Virus genome (UHGV): UHGV-0060989
Length of the DNA: 16,644 nt
DNA from: a virus
Strand: one strand, 5' to 3'
Positions 2,315 through 16,594 of this stretch are shown here, piece by piece. Both the position numbers and the translations under genes were made by a program. Each line of letters begins with the position of its first letter. Within the stretch, counting starts at the first letter, position 1. The notes under the pieces were generated by a model that did not search any database, was not told the origin of the DNA, and saw nothing but the letters and a program-made list of their open reading frames with translations.

Positions 2315-2913
2315 GCGGCCTCACTTCTGCTATTTCGCAGGTCTTTGAGTTTCTGCTGATACTCCGCCTTGATGGCCCTGCACTCTTCGACAGTCCAGCG
2401 ATGGCGGTTATGGTTTGATTCGATTTCGTCTACTGCTTCCTGCCCGATGCGATTAATCAGTTCGACGCGATACGGAACGAGATTTCCGCTTTTGTGCTGG
2501 TTGCACACCACGCATTGCTTGTGAATATTGCGTTCATCAAATCGGAGTTGAGGTGCCGCAGCAGTTGTCCGGTAATGTCCGGCATCCCACTGAGCAGACG
2601 TGAGCGTTCCGCACGAGATACATGGTAAGTCGCGGTCTCTTTCTCTGATGAAGGCGTTTACGGCTTGTTGGGCTTGTTTAATCCAGTAACTGCGGGGCTT
2701 TAAGGCGAGTTTTCGAATCTTCAGTTTATCTTTCTGTTTCTGCTCCTCTCGTCGTCGTTTCTTCTCTGCTGCTTTTTCCGCTTTTTCGCGTTCTTTACTT
2801 CGTCGTTCGAGTGCTATCTTGGTTCCACAAATCTCATTACACCAATATTGATTTTGATATTTTGGTATAAACCATTCATTGCAACATTTACATTTCCTTC
2901 GATAGATTCGCAT
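2311..2913 (-). CDS. ninG: NinG / Rap (recombination-associated protein), divergent N-terminus with its own start
   Basis: From the Met at 2913 the product is [58 protein letters not shown]..., collinear with lambda NinG after its first ~10 residues. A strong AAGGAG site lies 5 nt upstream of this ATG. The 220 aa track ORF is an upstream extension. Confidence 0.85.
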
Positions 2914-3454
2914 AAGTGCTCCTTTCGTTGCCGGAAAAATCACCGTAATACTTATCTCGGGCTTCTTCAGCAACTAGTACCGCTAACTCCAGATCATCAA
3001 AGCATCCGAAGTGTTTACTCTTGCCATGGAAACCTAGCCTAACATTCCATTTTTTCTGTCGTTTGTGCCAAGTAACTCCTCTGCAACCTGATTTGCTATT
3101 CTTTCGGATCCTTATATTTCTTGAATTTTCTATTGGCAGGCATTCTCTTAAATTTTCTGGCCTATTGTCGGTCCTAATTCCATTAACGTGGTCAATTTGA
3201 CCAGCAGGCCAACGATTATGAGTTATGTAAAAAACTAAGACGTGAGTTTTATATCTACGCCCATCTATCATGATCATTGAATAACCGTTGGAATCAAAAG
3301 TTCCAGCAACACTATTTAATGCTATCCTTCCCTGAGTGGGAACTTTCCATCTAAATACCCCGGTAGATTTATCGAAACTTAGTAACTCAAATATCCTTTT
3401 AACAGTTAAATCTTCTCTTTTACGGTTACATCGTCTTCGCGCTGGTTTAGCCAT
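2888..3454 (-). CDS. HNH homing endonuclease with C-terminal AP2 DNA-binding domain, fused in frame to the first ~10 codons of lambda-type ninG
   Basis: The product starts MAKPARRRC, identical to the lambda NinG N-terminus, then continues ...[23 protein letters not shown]...[23 protein letters not shown] (HNH_3 motif) and ...[49 protein letters not shown] (AP2-like). The body is AT-rich relative to its flanks. Confidence 0.8.
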
Positions 3455-3641
3455 CATCTTCTTCCTCGTGCATCGAGCTATTCGAATCGCTCATCAGCTC
3501 TGCACAGCAGTACTCACACACGTGAACTTCCAGCACATGCAACTTCTGACCGCAGTTAGCGCACGTTAAAGCCCGCTCGACGCTTTCTTGTTCGTAACTT
3601 CGATTTGGGTCAATCACCTTGTTTTCCTCATGCGGTTCCAT
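3447..3641 (-). CDS. ninF: NinF
   Basis: The C-terminal 64 aa of the 153 aa track ORF, from Met90: [64 protein letters not shown]. This resembles lambda NinF, and its stop overlaps the ninG-type start as in lambda. Confidence 0.7.
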   Translation of the reverse strand: MEPHEENKVIDPNRSYEQESVERALTCANCGQKLHVLEVHVCEYCCAELMSDSNSSMHEEEDDG

Positions 3642-3930: not shown

Positions 3931-4367
3931 GCTGCCCGGTCTCCCCATCGCGCTTTCCACTCCAGAGCCAGTCGCGCTTCGTCTGACCACTTAACGCCAC
4001 GCTCTGCACCGAATGCCTGTATAAGCTCTAATAGCTCCGCAAATTCGCTTACACGCATCCTGCTGGTTGACTGGCCTATTACCACAAAGCCATTCCCGGC
4101 AAGGTTAGGAACAACATCCTGCTGCTTTAATGCTGCGGTAAACACACACTTCCAGCTTTCTGCATCCAGCCAGCGACCATGCCATTCAACCTGACGAGAG
4201 ACGTCACCTAAGCAGGCCCATAGCTTCCTGTTTTGGTCTAAGCTGCGGTTGCGCTCCTGAATGATCACTACGATTGGCTTGGTTGGGTCTGGAAGGATTT
4301 GCTGTACTGCGTGAATAGCGTTTTGCTGATGTGCTGGAGATCGAATTTCAAAGGTTAGTTTTTTCAT
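3927..4367 (-). CDS. ninB: NinB (recombination mediator)
   Basis: From [34 protein letters not shown]... the 146 aa product matches lambda NinB. A GGAGAGGG ribosome-binding site lies upstream. Confidence 0.9.
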
Positions 4368-4440: not shown

Positions 4441-5817
4441 TCATACGTCAGCCCCTTGTGCATATCGTCTGCCACGTGCAGCAGGTGCATTTGATGTTGT
4501 GCAAATCTGTCTGGCTTCATCCTGGTCACATGCAACAAAGTGTCCGTTGCAGAACCGCTGGTAAACCGTACCAAGCGAGCCAAAACGGTTTTTCGTCACG
4601 ATGATTTCAGCAAATGGCGCGGCGCTACTGTTCTCGTCATATACCGCTTCCCGATAGAGCATGATGATTGAGTCTGCGTCCTGTTCAATGCTTCCAGAAT
4701 CACGCAAATCTGCGTTTGTCGGGCGTTTGTTTGGTCGCTTCTCAACATCGCGCGAAAGCTGACTCAGGGAGATAACAGGCGTTTTCAGGTCTTTCGCCAT
4801 CGCCTTCAGGCTTCCGGAGATGTGAGCAATTGCGAGGTCGTTGCGATCTGCTTTCGGCTTCTCAATCAGGCCAAGATAATCCGCCATGATGAGTGACAGG
4901 TTTGGATTTTCCTGTTTATGCCGTTCTGCGATTGAGCGTATTTCTTCGACCGATAACCGCGAGGCATCGACTACCCATACATCCAAATCTGCAAGCTGAC
5001 TCATGCCGTTAGCAACACGCGCCCAGCCTTCGTCATCCATCGATGCAGGATTTCGCAGTACGCTAACCGACATCCTCCCGGCGTTGGCAATGCTTCGCTC
5101 TGCAATCTGCAATGCGCTCATTTCCATTGAGAAAATCAATACTCCGCGCCGGACGTCAGAACCAGGAATAACGCGGCTTGCAACACCTTCGGCAATCTTC
5201 AGCGCCAGCTCGGTTTTCCCCATACCAGGACGAGCAGCGATTATCACCAGGTCTTCCGCGTTCATCCCTCCGGTGATGGCGTCAAGTTCTTCGATTCCGG
5301 TCTTCAGGGTATCTGATTCCTCTCCGTTCCTCAGACGCCTGTCAAGCGTGTCAGTGTAGTCAGTGATGATTTCCCCTAACCGTACAGGTTTAACCTCGTC
5401 ACGGGGCTTTCTGATGGCTGAAAGACGCTTTACAAGCTCGTCCATCGCCTGACTCGATGTATCGATGGTTCCGCTCTGAATTGGTTCACGCATTTCATCC
5501 ATGATTTCCAGCACCAGACGGCGGTGATAGTTATCCGCGACCATTCCGGCATATCCCTTCAGGTTTGCGGCACTCGGGCAGTTCTTACTGGTCATCAGGA
5601 TTGACGTGAAATGCTCCTCTCCGCACGCCTCGGCAACCATCAGCGCGTCGATTAGGTTTCTGTTTCTCGCCTGCTTACGGATAACTTCGAAGGCTTTCCT
5701 GTAGAGCGGAATTGAAAACGCTTCCGGCTCAAGCGTTGCCAGAACGTCACTGGCGGTTGGAGTTAATCCACCAATCAGCAGGCCACCGATAACGCTCGCT
5801 TCGATATCCTGTCTCAT
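4441..5817 (-). CDS. Replicative DNA helicase (DnaB family, P22 gene 12-like)
   Basis: 458 aa ORF with Walker A ([12 protein letters not shown]), a DnaB-like N-terminal domain and RecA-like core motifs. It follows the O-like gene with an ATGA overlap. Confidence 0.9.
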
Positions 5818-6650
5818 GCAATCCCCCTGTCTGCAAACTTCCCTTCCCGAACTCCCGTTAACGAGTCTTCCCTCAGCAGGTAATCAAAATCTGCCGTCCA
5901 GCCCGTGTCGTTGTCTCCGAAGTAAAACGGCTTGGCCTGATGCACAAACGCCCTGACATACGCTCTGAAACCGTCCACGTTTGGCGTTTTCAGTTGCGGA
6001 ATGATTTTCTTCAGGCGACGTTTGCGTTTCTCGTTGACCGCAACAGCATGAGGAAGTCTGTCACCGACTTCGGTGTTGTAGGCGTTCAGGAAGGATTCGT
6101 AGTCGATGCGTTCTGCCTTGCGACGTTCAGGTTTAACCTGCCCATCGCCGCCCCCATTGGGGGGTAGGGGGGTATTTGTATTTATTGTCTTTTGTATATT
6201 GTCTTTTGTGTTTGACTGATTCGGTAAATTGCTTTTTACCGATTTAGTGAAGGTTTGTTTTACCGAATTGGTAAATGTTTTACCGAATCCGTTAACTTTC
6301 GTTTTCCACTCGGAAATGTTTGTATTCATACCAACTTGACGCCCCACCTGAATGAGAACTCCCATTCTGATAAGCTCGTTTTTGGCGGTAGAGCATTTGG
6401 TTGGTGCCATGCCAGTGAGTTCAGCGAACTGTTCGTTTCCGATCCAATCTATTTTTTTGTTGTAACCGTATGTCTTGCGCCACACAGCCATAACAATCAG
6501 TAGCTGATGTTGAGTAAGCCCGGAAAGCATGACGGCTTCTAACAGTGTGTTTGCAGTCCGAGTGTAGCCATCTTCGAGTTCTGCCACGCGATACTCCACC
6601 GCCTCCAGATGAGGTCGTATAGGTATGACTTTCTCATACGCCAGATTCAT
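5814..6650 (-). CDS. Replication initiator, lambda O-like N-terminal domain (P22 gene 18-like)
   Basis: The N-terminal region [48 protein letters not shown]...NISEW parallels the lambda O N-domain. The start is placed at the Met preceded by GGAGAGGAAAG; the track start at 6668 is the alternative. Iterons lie inside the gene. Confidence 0.85.
6180..6300. repeat. Putative replication origin: iterons plus AT-rich tract inside the O-like gene
   Basis: ttgtcttttgt occurs twice (6185..6209). TTTTACCGA(A/T)T occurs three times in direct orientation, with ATTCGGTAAA / TTGGTAAAT in inverse orientation (6219..6287). A G-rich tract ggggggtagggggg sits just upstream. Confidence 0.55.
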
Positions 6651-6810
6651 CTTTCCTCTCCATGCCATTAATCATGATTTCGACGCAAAGAAGAACGCAT
6701 TCATTGCATATAGAAACCCCGGGGCCAGCAATGATGTGCTTAACCTCGAGGTTCGTTTTATCGCAAAAAGAACACTTGTGAGTCGGCGCGATTGTTTGGG
6801 TGTTACTCAT
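6634..6810 (-). CDS. Small standalone ClpX-type C4 zinc-finger protein (58 aa), overlapping the O-like start
   Basis: Hand translation: [58 protein letters not shown]. The CSFCxK...IAGPxVxICxECVxLC pattern matches the ClpX N-terminal zinc-binding domain. A GGAGAAAGG site lies upstream. Not in the ORF track. Confidence 0.6.
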
Positions 6811-6949
6811 GACCTTTCTCCTTCCGCATCAGCTTCACTTTTTCCAACTCAGCCCGGAATCGACCAGGCTGCTTGAAGCTGGACAGGAAGCGATCACGTA
6901 GTATGTGTTTGTGAATTTTGTCCTGGTAAGGACTGAGTTGTTTTGTCAT
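6803..6949 (-). CDS. Hypothetical small basic protein (48 aa) between cII and the zinc-finger ORF
   Basis: [48 protein letters not shown] with an AGGAG site 5 nt upstream. Its stop overlaps the zinc-finger ORF start. Not in the ORF track. Confidence 0.4.
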
Positions 6950-6981
6950 AATTACTCCTGTGGATTGATCCAGTAATTCCC

Positions 6982-7278
6982 TCAGAATTGCATATCAGTT
7001 TGCTTAAAATCCTCGGTGGCGGCCGGGGATTTTTTCTTTGTGATTTCATCAAGCGCATACTTAAAAGCCCTGCTAATCGGACTGATGTCTGATGCCATTC
7101 CGAAAGCACACAAGACCGAAGCAATAAATCTCCAGTCCGTTCTGCTTATCTTCGATTCATGACAGCCAATCATCTTTGCCAGACCGCGCTGGGTAAGCGT
7201 TGACAGGTTGATGAGTAAATCAGTTTCAGCGCGATCAATTTCTCGCTGTGTTGGCTTGCTGTAGCTTGCTTGTGCCAT
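6982..7278 (-). CDS. cII: CII-like transcriptional activator (P22 C1 / lambda CII family)
   Basis: 98 aa; the segment ...[19 protein letters not shown]...[20 protein letters not shown] parallels the lambda CII C-terminal region (KKRPAATERSEQIQMEF). It lies immediately downstream of cro. Confidence 0.85.
7256..7269 (+). promoter_or_regulatory. Candidate CII-binding box of pRE (TTGC-N6-TTGC) inside the cII 5' end, oriented toward the repressor gene
   Basis: TTGCtgtagcTTGC on the plus strand, at the position of lambda pRE. Confidence 0.4.
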
Positions 7279-7393: not shown

Positions 7394-7579
7394 TTATGCC
7401 GCTTGGCGGTAAGCACTTTCTTGATACTTCAGGGCGCCAGCTGTAACGATTTCCAATCGATAGGCGTCTTTCTCTGGGATAACTTCTTTCCACTGAGAGA
7501 CTGCTGCATCGCTAATGCCTAGTGCTTTAGCAACAGCACGCTGGGTTCCGAAGTGGTCAATAACATCTTTTTTGTACAT
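7394..7579 (-). CDS. cro: Cro repressor (P22-type)
   Basis: 61 aa MYKKDVIDHFGTQRAVAKALGISDAAVSQWKEVIPEKDAYRLEIVTAGALKYQESAYRQAA, nearly identical to P22 Cro as I recall it. Confidence 0.95.
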   Translation of the reverse strand: MYKKDVIDHFGTQRAVAKALGISDAAVSQWKEVIPEKDAYRLEIVTAGALKYQESAYRQAA

Positions 7580-7659
7580 AGACTCGCTCCGAAATTAAAG
7601 AACACTTAAATTATCCACCAAAGGAATCTTAAGTCAAGTTTATTTAAGATGTCTTAACT
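7580..7659. promoter_or_regulatory. Divergent OR/PR/PRM region with P22-type 18 bp operators
   Basis: Operator-like palindromes ATTAAAGAACACTTAAAT (7594..7611) and ATTTAAGATGTCTTAACT (7642..7659), plus a probable third site around 7618..7637. PR on the minus strand reads TTGACT-17 bp-ATAATT. The c2 start has no Shine-Dalgarno site, consistent with a leaderless PRM transcript. Confidence 0.75.
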
Positions 7660-15330: not shown

Positions 15331-15546
15331 TACTTGACACTTCAGGAGTGGAACGCTCGCCAACGACGCCCAAGAAGCCTTGAAACAGTTCGTCGATGGG
15401 TACGCGAGTGCAGGATATTCCCTCCTCCGGTTAAGGATGGAAGAGAGTATCTGTTCCACGAATCAGCGGTAAAGGTTGACTTAAATCGACCAGTAACAGG
15501 TAGCCTTTTGAAGAGGATCAGAAATGGGAAGAAGGCGAAGTCATGA
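15328..15546 (+). CDS. xis: Excisionase Xis (lambda-type)
   Basis: 72 aa MYLTLQEWNARQRRPRSLETVRRWVRECRIFPPPVKDGREYLFHESAVKVDLNRPVTGSLLKRIRNGKKAKS matches lambda Xis. Its 3' end overlaps the int start. Confidence 0.95.
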   Translation: MYLTLQEWNARQRRPRSLETVRRWVRECRIFPPPVKDGREYLFHESAVKVDLNRPVTGSLLKRIRNGKKAKS

Positions 15547-16594
15547 GCGCCGGGATTTACCCCCTAACCTTTATATAAGAAACAATGGATATTACTGCTA
15601 CAGGGACCCAAGGACGGGTAAAGAGTTTGGATTAGGCCGAGACAGGCGAATCGCAATCACTGAAGCCATACAGGCCAACATTGAGTTATTTTCAGGACAC
15701 AAACACAAGCCTCTGACAGCGAGAATCAACAGTGATAATTCCGTTACGTTACATTCATGGCTTGATCGCTACGAAAAAATCCTGGCCAGCAGAGGAATCA
15801 AGCAGAAGACACTCATAAATTACATGAGCAAAATTAAAGCAATAAGGAGGGGTCTGCCTGATGCTCCACTTGAAGACATCACCACAAAAGAAATTGCGGC
15901 AATGCTCAATGGATACATAGACGAGGGCAAGGCGGCGTCAGCCAAGTTAATCAGATCAACACTGAGCGATGCATTCCGAGAGGCAATAGCTGAAGGCCAT
16001 ATAACAACAAACCCTGTCGCTGCCACTCGCGCAGCAAAATCAGAGGTAAGGAGATCAAGACTTACGGCTGACGAATACCTGAAAATTTATCAAGCAGCAG
16101 AATCATCACCATGTTGGCTCAGACTTGCAATGGAACTGGCTGTTGTTACCGGGCAACGAGTTGGTGATTTATGCGAAATGAAGTGGTCTGATATCGTAGA
16201 TGGATATCTTTATGTCGAGCAAAGCAAAACAGGCGTAAAAATTGCCATCCCAACAGCATTGCATGTTGATGCTCTCGGAATATCAATGAAGGAAACACTT
16301 GATAAATGCAAAGAGATTCTTGGCGGAGAAACCATAATTGCATCTACTCGTCGCGAACCGCTTTCATCCGGCACAGTATCAAGGTATTTTATGCGCGCAC
16401 GAAAAGCATCAGGTCTTTCCTTCGAAGGGGATCCGCCTACCTTTCACGAGTTGCGCAGTTTGTCTGCAAGACTCTATGAGAAGCAGATAAGCGATAAGTT
16501 TGCTCAACATCTTCTCGGGCATAAGTCGGACACCATGGCATCACAGTATCGTGATGACAGAGGCAGGGAGTGGGACAAAATTGAAATCAAATAA
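15524..16594 (+). CDS. int: Integrase Int (lambda-type tyrosine recombinase)
   Basis: 356 aa MGRRRSHERRDLPPNLYIRNNGYYCYRDPRTGKEFGLGRDRRIAITEAIQANIELFSGHKHKPL... matches lambda Int, including the catalytic C-terminal domain (HELRSLSARLY...LLGHKSDTMASQY). Confidence 0.97.
   Translation: MGRRRSHERRDLPPNLYIRNNGYYCYRDPRTGKEFGLGRDRRIAITEAIQANIELFSGHKHKPLTARINSDNSVTLHSWLDRYEKILASRGIKQKTLINYMSKIKAIRRGLPDAPLEDITTKEIAAMLNGYIDEGKAASAKLIRSTLSDAFREAIAEGHITTNPVAATRAAKSEVRRSRLTADEYLKIYQAAESSPCWLRLAMELAVVTGQRVGDLCEMKWSDIVDGYLYVEQSKTGVKIAIPTALHVDALGISMKETLDKCKEILGGETIIASTRREPLSSGTVSRYFMRARKASGLSFEGDPPTFHELRSLSARLYEKQISDKFAQHLLGHKSDTMASQYRDDRGREWDKIEIK

Follow-up and report, generated by a model that had tools for sequence, protein, structure and literature searches.

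The window analysed here, the whole 16,644-nucleotide stretch of UHGV virus genome UHGV-0060989, is a lambdoid prophage in which a small gene on the minus strand, lying between cII and the gene for a lambda O-like replication initiator, encodes a free-standing copy of ClpX's zinc-binding domain (ZBD). We refer to the product of this gene as ZnF. The first-pass annotation had proposed a 58-amino-acid open reading frame (ORF) without naming a strand, had located it in the PR operon, after cII and before the O-like initiator, and had described it as ending inside the start of the initiator gene. The ORF is present at exactly 6634-6810, on the minus strand; the gene order agrees, and the ZnF stop codon falls within the initiator ORF. 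The gene, its start and stop signals and the initiator are arranged as follows.

6634-6810, minus strand: coding sequence of ZnF, the 58-amino-acid standalone ClpX-type ZBD mini-protein (ORF, profile match, structural model, ratio of nonsynonymous to synonymous substitution rates (dN/dS), and public gene calls)
6774-6772, 6765-6763, 6708-6706 and 6699-6697, minus strand: zinc-ligand codons of ZnF for Cys13, Cys16, Cys35 and Cys38, respectively
6818-6823, minus strand: AAGGAG, Shine-Dalgarno-like, 7 nucleotides 5' of the ZnF ATG (read from the sequence)
6803-6810, minus strand: ATGAGTAA, overlap of the ZnF ATG (6810-6808) and the stop codon of orf48 (6805-6803)
6634-6650, minus strand: 17-nucleotide overlap of the ZnF 3' end (stop TGA 6636-6634) and the initiator start, with the initiator in frame +1
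6654-6661, minus strand: GGAGAGGA, Shine-Dalgarno-like for the initiator start at 6650, within the ZnF coding sequence
5814-6650, minus strand: O-like replication initiator (Phage_rep_O), 278 amino acids from the conserved start

We rejected a plus-strand reading of 6634-6810, whose translation contains no zinc-finger sequence at all, and the 83-amino-acid plus-strand ORF at 6625-6876 is an antisense shadow of the ZnF gene. The longest ORF for the initiator begins at 6668, encodes 284 amino acids and would overlap the ZnF gene by 35 nucleotides. The true start is, however, probably the ATG at 6650-6648, which would make the longer ORF six codons too long; we prefer this start because gene callers use the corresponding ATG in all relatives and because a Shine-Dalgarno site serves it. 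The same 17-nucleotide overlap between ZnF and the initiator is found in all relatives linked to a Phage_rep_O initiator. In P22 the initiator, gene 18, starts at the position of the ZnF ATG and is served by the same AAGGAG site that precedes ZnF here. The N terminus of ZnF (MSNTQTIAP) bears some likeness to that of P22 gp18 (MSNLATVTP), and we considered this as the mark of a duplication. We did not use it as evidence: the ATGAGTAA overlap dictates 'MSN', and 'AP-THKC' belongs to the features of the ZnF family.

The assignment of ZnF as a ClpX-type ZBD is secure, given its profile match, its sequence matches in the PDB, the spacing of its zinc ligands and the superposition of its model. The ClpX C4 zinc-binding pattern had been claimed from the letters of the sequence, and the profile search proposed as a check returned a strong match to Pfam PF06689 (zf-C4_ClpX; E value 7.6e-15, 55 bits, gathering score 27) that spans profile positions 2-37 of 39 (36 of 39). 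The pattern in ZnF is CxxC-18-CxxC, with Cys13, Cys16, Cys35 and Cys38 aligning with C14, C17, C36 and C39 of ClpX, and across 72 family members the four zinc-ligand cysteines are conserved at 96% or above. The top PDB sequence matches are ClpX and the isolated ClpX ZBD. Matches in NCBIfam are solely to the N-termini (positions 5-48) of the ClpX equivalogs TIGR00382 and NF003745; its scores, 39.5 and 36.6 bits, fall far short of the full-length cut-offs (359 and 371), and with a length of 58 amino acids and no AAA+ module ZnF is not itself a ClpX. An AlphaFold2 model built from an 83-sequence family alignment has a predicted local distance difference test score (pLDDT) of 85 overall and above 90 for residues 11-50 (single-sequence AlphaFold prediction gave a pLDDT of only 50), and its predicted fold consists of two beta-hairpins and a C-terminal helix, as in the ZBD. 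Using Foldseek, this model superposes on the crystal structures of the E. coli ZBD (2DS5, 2DS6 and 2DS8) with a root-mean-square deviation of 0.5 Å over 37-38 residues at 53% identity, and with a template modelling score, normalized to the target, of 0.84-0.91. Structure prediction, which had also been proposed as a check, thus agrees with the profile search.

The identical protein occurs in 51 index blocks, and gene calls for it exist on at least 24 public contigs; among the 24 longest contigs read, all four places shown carry the block DUF2740-ZnF-rep_O (278 amino acids)-DnaB (458 amino acids), and this block adjoins four different cI/cro immunity modules. Word-indexed searches returned 17 relatives, and a family profile then returned more than 100 clusters, at 90% identity, of homologues of 55-70 amino acids in prophages of Enterobacterales (Enterobacter, Citrobacter, Klebsiella, Salmonella, Serratia, Raoultella, Leclercia, Pluralibacter and Escherichia). 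IMG/VR contains at least 104 loci of the family. In a scan of GTDB species representatives, family members occupied 3 of 80 loci (the best 80 of 308 confirmed hits), the remainder being genuine ClpX N-termini or ZBD proteins of 100-135 amino acids from other phyla. By tblastn the best matches are full-length homologues, at most 49% identical, in two Klebsiella phages. In one annotated Klebsiella phage, ST846-OXA48phi9.2 (MK416022; locus L002), a 51-amino-acid antisense 'hypothetical protein' (4004-4159, minus strand) is recorded instead of the true ZnF gene (3968/4001-4189, plus strand), and it follows that the family is under-annotated in phage records.

The first-pass annotation had named two points on which its proposal could fail, the profile match and conservation in related phages, and neither refutes it. 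The ORF is conserved in related prophages, and when the window's ZnF gene was compared codon by codon with 13 relatives, 50-85% identical, dN/dS came to 0.08-0.31 wherever the synonymous rate was unsaturated (synonymous change nears saturation at 50-65% amino-acid identity). Purifying selection, together with the same arrangement in dozens of independent loci, indicates that the ZnF ORF is, as judged from sequence comparison, a real gene under purifying selection and beyond chance. One could nevertheless suppose that the protein has no function, and that the ORF is either a leader that sets initiator translation through coupling or a decaying fragment of clpX; after all, the ORF overlaps both of its neighbours, some copies are broken and most related phages do without the gene. 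The dN/dS values largely refute this account, which we regard as highly improbable: the four cysteines and the fold core are kept in approximately 70 members, the family has conserved residues of its own, the size is constant at 58-70 amino acids and no AAA+ remnant lies 3' of the ORF. On the grounds of selection, constant size, family-specific invariant residues and the missing AAA+ remnant, we rejected the notion of a captured host clpX fragment in decay.

In a survey of synteny, which the first-pass annotation had suggested for the cII-O junction, the first large ORF after ZnF in the same orientation is a replication initiator in 78/78 scored loci. These comprise 68 of 80 IMG/VR loci and 10 loci from an earlier retrieval, some of them redundant with the former; the other 12 IMG/VR loci, with variant or damaged zinc-finger motifs, were set aside from scoring. 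For each locus the ZnF ORF was located, and its neighbours were classed against reference proteins and then with Pfam and PHROGs. The linked initiators fall into three Pfam-distinct types, and their helicase or loader partners vary.

Phage_rep_O initiator, then DnaB (the type in the window)
Phage_rep_O initiator, then a DnaC-like loader
Divergent Phage_rep_O initiator (phrog_2514), then a lambda-P-like loader
phrog_1701 'DnaD-like' initiator (no Pfam hit), then a DnaC-like loader (the majority)
HTH_36/DnaD_N initiator, then a lambda-P-like loader

The phrog_1701 module is carried by Klebsiella and Enterobacter prophages, where it lies 3' of YdaS/YdaT. Upstream of ZnF the neighbour is likewise variable, and may be DUF2740, cII, YdaT, an HNH endonuclease or cro. 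Both flanks of the ZnF gene are exchanged and yet it keeps its place at the front of the replication module, which is the strongest functional clue. A fusion of ZnF to the initiator by programmed frameshifting was rejected on account of the initiator frame, which is +1 relative to that of ZnF, and is also contradicted by the phrog_1701 arrangement, in which a gap of 14-17 nucleotides separates the two genes and contains a Shine-Dalgarno site of the initiator's own.

To compare residues, 72 small family members were aligned with E. coli ClpX. Common to the family and ClpX are the zinc ligands, the core residues I28, A29, V33, I35, V40 and C43, and, in addition, F16 and I46; F16 of ClpX corresponds to F15 of ZnF (kept in 71/72 members) and I46 to I45 (55/72). 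ClpX without its ZBD is unable to degrade lambda O, and the lambda O site on the ZBD overlaps the hydrophobic region around F16 and I46, where SspB and RssB bind too and which has also been linked to trigger factor (PMC7804408). Purified ZBD supplied in trans inhibits RssB-mediated breakdown of sigma-S by ClpXP in vitro (PMC7226468), so a free ZBD that retains the F16/I46 pocket has an in vitro precedent as a competitor.

These findings raise the possibility, which we favour tentatively and would put at somewhat less than even, that ZnF is a decoy that shields the initiator from ClpXP. According to this proposal, ZnF would adopt the ZBD fold with zinc bound, probably dimerizing as the ClpX domain does, and retains the hydrophobic pocket by which ClpX holds lambda O, SspB and RssB. 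Being produced just ahead of the initiator, and roughly in step with it, ZnF could compete with the ZBDs of the host's ClpX hexamer for binding to the ClpX-recognition element of newly made initiator, and perhaps to the tails of adaptors, and degradation of the initiator by ClpXP would then be slowed until it had assembled at the origin. ZnF would on this account be an optional tuning device rather than a core replication factor. The invariable linkage to several types of initiator, the retention of the F16/I46 pocket and the inhibition of adaptor-mediated ClpXP degradation by isolated ZBD in vitro each make the decoy proposal more plausible. Whatever we say of ZnF beyond its identity, conservation and gene linkage, we infer.

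The same alignment revealed positions at which the family has near-invariant or strongly preferred residues of its own: T10-H11-K12 in place of L11-L12-Y13 of ClpX, S/C33 in place of Y34, N20 and G31, and, on the helix, F/L40 in place of D41, V43 in place of N44 and F47 in place of R48. Positions 40, 43 and 47 are spaced i, i+3, i+7 and so form one hydrophobic face of the helix, which suggests a partner surface that is absent from ClpX. ZnF might accordingly be an accessory factor specific to the initiator: with the ZBD scaffold and this family-specific face it would bind the initiator, alone or in complex with the origin, and act as a chaperone or in assembly, for instance by keeping aggregation in check or helping to recruit the helicase or loader, with ClpXP beside the point. 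Strict adjacency to several initiator types would fit such a role, as would the surface residues that are invariant in the family and absent from ClpX (THK, F/L40, V43 and F47) and the way in which ZnF sub-types track initiators: CVLLC goes with Phage_rep_O, GDGVCIC with the HTH_36 initiator, and a one-residue loop insertion plus CVFLC or CVFQC with phrog_1701. Correlation of sub-types is, however, expected from tight linkage alone, closely related initiators work without ZnF (SaI_NFG_5581 at 95% and P22 gp18 at 79% identity), and the partners vary between DnaB, DnaC-like and lambda-P-like proteins, so that no single helicase or loader target fits. Moreover, the retained lambda O pocket is more simply explained by the decoy proposal. 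We consider the accessory-factor account somewhat unlikely.

A further account looks to the other half of the residue comparison. Because the ZBD core is conserved in the family (I28, A29, V33, I35, V40, C43 and I46), the model backbone is almost identical to that of the ZBD, and natural tandem, covalently joined pairs of ZBDs fit a dimer as the working unit, ZnF could be directed at ClpX itself, forming mixed dimers with ClpX ZBDs or docking on the ClpX ring. It would then either poison the function of the N-domain or, like an adaptor, recruit ClpX to remodel the initiator-origin complex. In ClpX the ZBD dimer is highly stable and arises inside a single hexamer, which makes exchange with a free monomer unlikely, and we judge this account to be quite improbable.

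Several points weigh against the decoy proposal. The N-termini of the linked initiator types have no obvious motif in common with lambda O; the missing shared N-terminal degron neither supports nor kills the idea. The family's own invariant surface residues, unlike those of ClpX, make a pure ClpX mimic less likely, and the binding specificity of ZnF may differ. Lambda grows in clpX and clpP mutants, so a stabilized O may have only a subtle effect. Some prophage copies are broken, having lost a zinc ligand or acquired an in-frame stop. Nor is the gene general among related phages: the ZnF segment was present in 0/388 phage records that match its flanks by megablast or blastn, in 0/148 phage records matched by a short query spanning the gene, and in 0/5,426 complete E. 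coli genomes, low-stringency searches included. Finally, full-text literature searches, which left most subscription journals outside their reach, returned no paper on this family, on a standalone ClpX zinc finger of a phage or prophage, on linkage of one to replication initiators, or on a natural free ZBD acting on ClpXP.

By DNA sequence, then, close relatives of the gene are missing from annotated phages and from E. coli, with megablast and blastn matching the flanks only. In P22, BTP1, HK97, the Shiga-toxin (Stx) phages and others, the initiator comes straight after orf48 and uses the ATG that belongs to ZnF here; relative to P22, the window has approximately 165 extra bases at the orf48/initiator junction. 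The replication module (O/P or gp18/gp12) works without ZnF in these related phages, and the gene is therefore an optional accessory of the lambdoid replication module and not a core component. The damaged minority of copies fits an accessory gene in decaying prophages. In these altered copies the fourth cysteine is changed to tyrosine (L142 and L152), the first cysteine to phenylalanine (L168), CSFC to CYFC and C42 to W (L165, L171 and L173), or an in-frame stop is present (L160).

An optional accessory could also be a general modulator of ClpXP, serving host takeover or counter-defence: a free ZBD might soak up SspB, RssB or ZBD-dependent substrates, block the ClpXP turnover of antitoxins that triggers abortive infection, or stabilize phage or host proteins, its position reflecting only early expression. 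This would be in keeping with the inhibition of adaptor-mediated degradation by free ZBD in vitro (PMC7226468) and with the occurrence of ZBD-only proteins elsewhere, between clpP and clpX, beside the genes for an ECF sigma factor and its possible anti-sigma factor and in a P2-like accessory region (phrog_6797, 110 amino acids). It leaves unexplained, however, why the gene sits constantly before the initiator, as opposed to the usual sites of accessory genes, while both neighbours change. PADLOC-DB, a library of defence rather than anti-defence proteins, gave no match to ZnF at E <= 0.01. We think a general modulator unlikely, and return to the decoy proposal as the reading that we prefer.

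As a whole the window is a lambdoid prophage that stretches between the integrase (15524-16594) and the holin (165-488), with RecT, an N-like protein, cI, cro, cII, the replication genes, the nin genes and Q between them. On the minus strand the order is pR-like promoter, cro, cII, DUF2740/orf48, ZnF, Phage_rep_O initiator, DnaB-like helicase, NinB. The promoter at 7637-7610 presumably drives the operon that contains the ZnF gene.

7610-7637, minus strand: pR-like sigma-70 promoter, TTGACT-16-GATAAT, 5' of cro (consensus scan only)
7394-7579, minus strand: P22-type cro
6982-7278, minus strand: cII-like activator, 5' in the same operon (Phage_CII, E value 2.7e-33)
6803-6949, minus strand: DUF2740 protein of 48 amino acids, homologue of P22 orf48 (PF10872, E value 3.5e-28; P22 annotation)
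4441-5817, minus strand: DnaB-like replicative helicase of the P22 gp12 type, the partner of the initiator

A strong terminator-like hairpin of 12 pairs (7006-7033, plus strand), followed by TTCTTTGT with a T-run to approximately 7043, runs antisense to the cII 3' end; in place and orientation it agrees with the terminator of lambda's oop antisense RNA. A ribosome-binding region of the sequence ggatcaat(t/c)cacaggagtaattATG recurs in front of whichever gene comes first after cII, orf48 or ZnF: it stands 5' of the ZnF ATG in five relatives (L010, L110, L118, L131 and L132) and 5' of orf48 in the window (6953-6974), and it resembles a conserved joint at which modules recombine. Among the nin genes, a 189-amino-acid ORF (2888-3457, minus strand) resembles homing endonucleases with HNH_3 and AP2 domains and overlaps the 5' end of the NinG ORF (2311-2973); similar HNH genes adjoin the ZnF gene in some relatives (L011, L012 and L181).

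ZBD-only proteins are not confined to lambdoid prophages. When 1.84 billion representatives were searched exhaustively with the profile, 15,787 matches came up, genuine ClpX among them. The top of this list consists mostly of proteins of 100-300 amino acids that are made of 2-6 tandem ZBDs alone (for example P0121, P0128, P0134 and P0085); such proteins are numerous in metagenomes. On three metagenome contigs the gene for a double-ZBD protein of 109 amino acids, P0118, separates clpP from clpX in a tig-clpP-[ZBDx2]-clpX operon. Elsewhere, a ZBD-containing protein of 103 amino acids is encoded 3' of the gene for an extracytoplasmic function (ECF) sigma factor, a gene for 270 amino acids with no Pfam hit, which may encode an anti-sigma factor, and a gene for 112-128 amino acids.

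L182-L184: loci of the double-ZBD protein P0118 (gene at 4001-4330 of L182)
L186, 4001-4312, and L187, 2527-2838: gene for the ZBD protein linked to an ECF sigma factor

Anti-sigma factors are ClpXP substrates in several bacteria. ZBD-only proteins thus appear as a broad, uncharacterized group, at least some members of which are genetically tied to ClpXP, and the double-ZBD protein encoded between clpP and clpX gives an independent hint that such proteins work with ClpXP. We can conceive, as a wider idea that is possible but on balance doubtful, that free-standing ZBDs form a natural, hitherto undescribed class of trans-acting regulators of ClpXP substrate choice, the single-copy lambdoid one shielding an initiator as a decoy and related proteins of 1-6 tandem copies, some of them encoded between clpP and clpX, doing likewise for cellular substrates.

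The rapid turnover of lambda O by ClpXP is a textbook case of regulated proteolysis and a long-studied control on lambdoid replication, including that of Shiga-toxin phages with this replication module. Were the decoy proposal true, a phage copy of the very ClpX domain that recognizes O would be a simple natural countermeasure, ZnF would be the first known case of a virus countering ClpX with a protein that copies its recognition domain, and it would provide a ready-made, specific inhibitor of N-domain-dependent ClpXP degradation that could be used as a tool. Should ZnF instead be a helper specific to the initiator, it would constitute a new optional component of a very well-known replication module. 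The wider set of ZBD-only proteins, with one member inside the clpP-clpX operon, suggests an unstudied layer of ClpXP regulation. The decoy hypothesis is specific, and cheap to test in a textbook proteolysis system.

Compared with known systems, ZnF is most like the ZBD of E. coli ClpX, with which it shares the CxxC-18-CxxC spacing, the predicted fold and the F16/I46 pocket (53% identity over 38 residues). Unlike ClpX, ZnF is free, is only 58 amino acids long, is encoded by a phage and has neither linker nor AAA+ module, an acidic C-terminal tail replacing the ClpX linker. Its family is not new to databases: the domain is well known, and NCBI and UniRef already name such small proteins (55-70 amino acids) after it. 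The 'ClpX C4-type zinc finger protein' of these databases, a domain-derived name to which no function is attached, is ZnF's own family, with 46-85% identity and the same position before the initiator. The variant in the window is linked to a P22-type Phage_rep_O initiator and DnaB, whereas most members of the family are linked to the phrog_1701 and DnaC-like module. The recombinant isolated ZBD (PMC7226468) is free of ATPase and acts in trans, as ZnF would do naturally, but it is a laboratory construct of the host sequence, and the surface residues of ZnF have diverged from it. The best PHROG match of ZnF is phrog_6797, which consists of P2-like proteins of 110 amino acids (from phages P88 and PhiR44_2) that, like ZnF, have a ClpX zinc finger, here C-terminal, and no ATPase. 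Unlike ZnF, they bear a 55-amino-acid N-terminal extension and are encoded in an accessory region, beyond gpA and a ParB-like gene rather than in front of an initiator; their genes (L096, 3318-3650, in P88; L097, 3321-3653, in PhiR44_2) are misnamed 'carboxylate-amine ligase' in GenBank/RefSeq. Lastly, mycobacterial ClpC2 is reported to be a partial homologue of ClpC1 that binds cyclomarin A, a ligand intended for the complete enzyme, and so protects the cell (PMC10030653), which is the logic of a decoy; ClpC2 belongs to another unfoldase family, has another fold, is chromosomal and has an antibiotic as its ligand, and its likeness to ZnF is one of analogy only.

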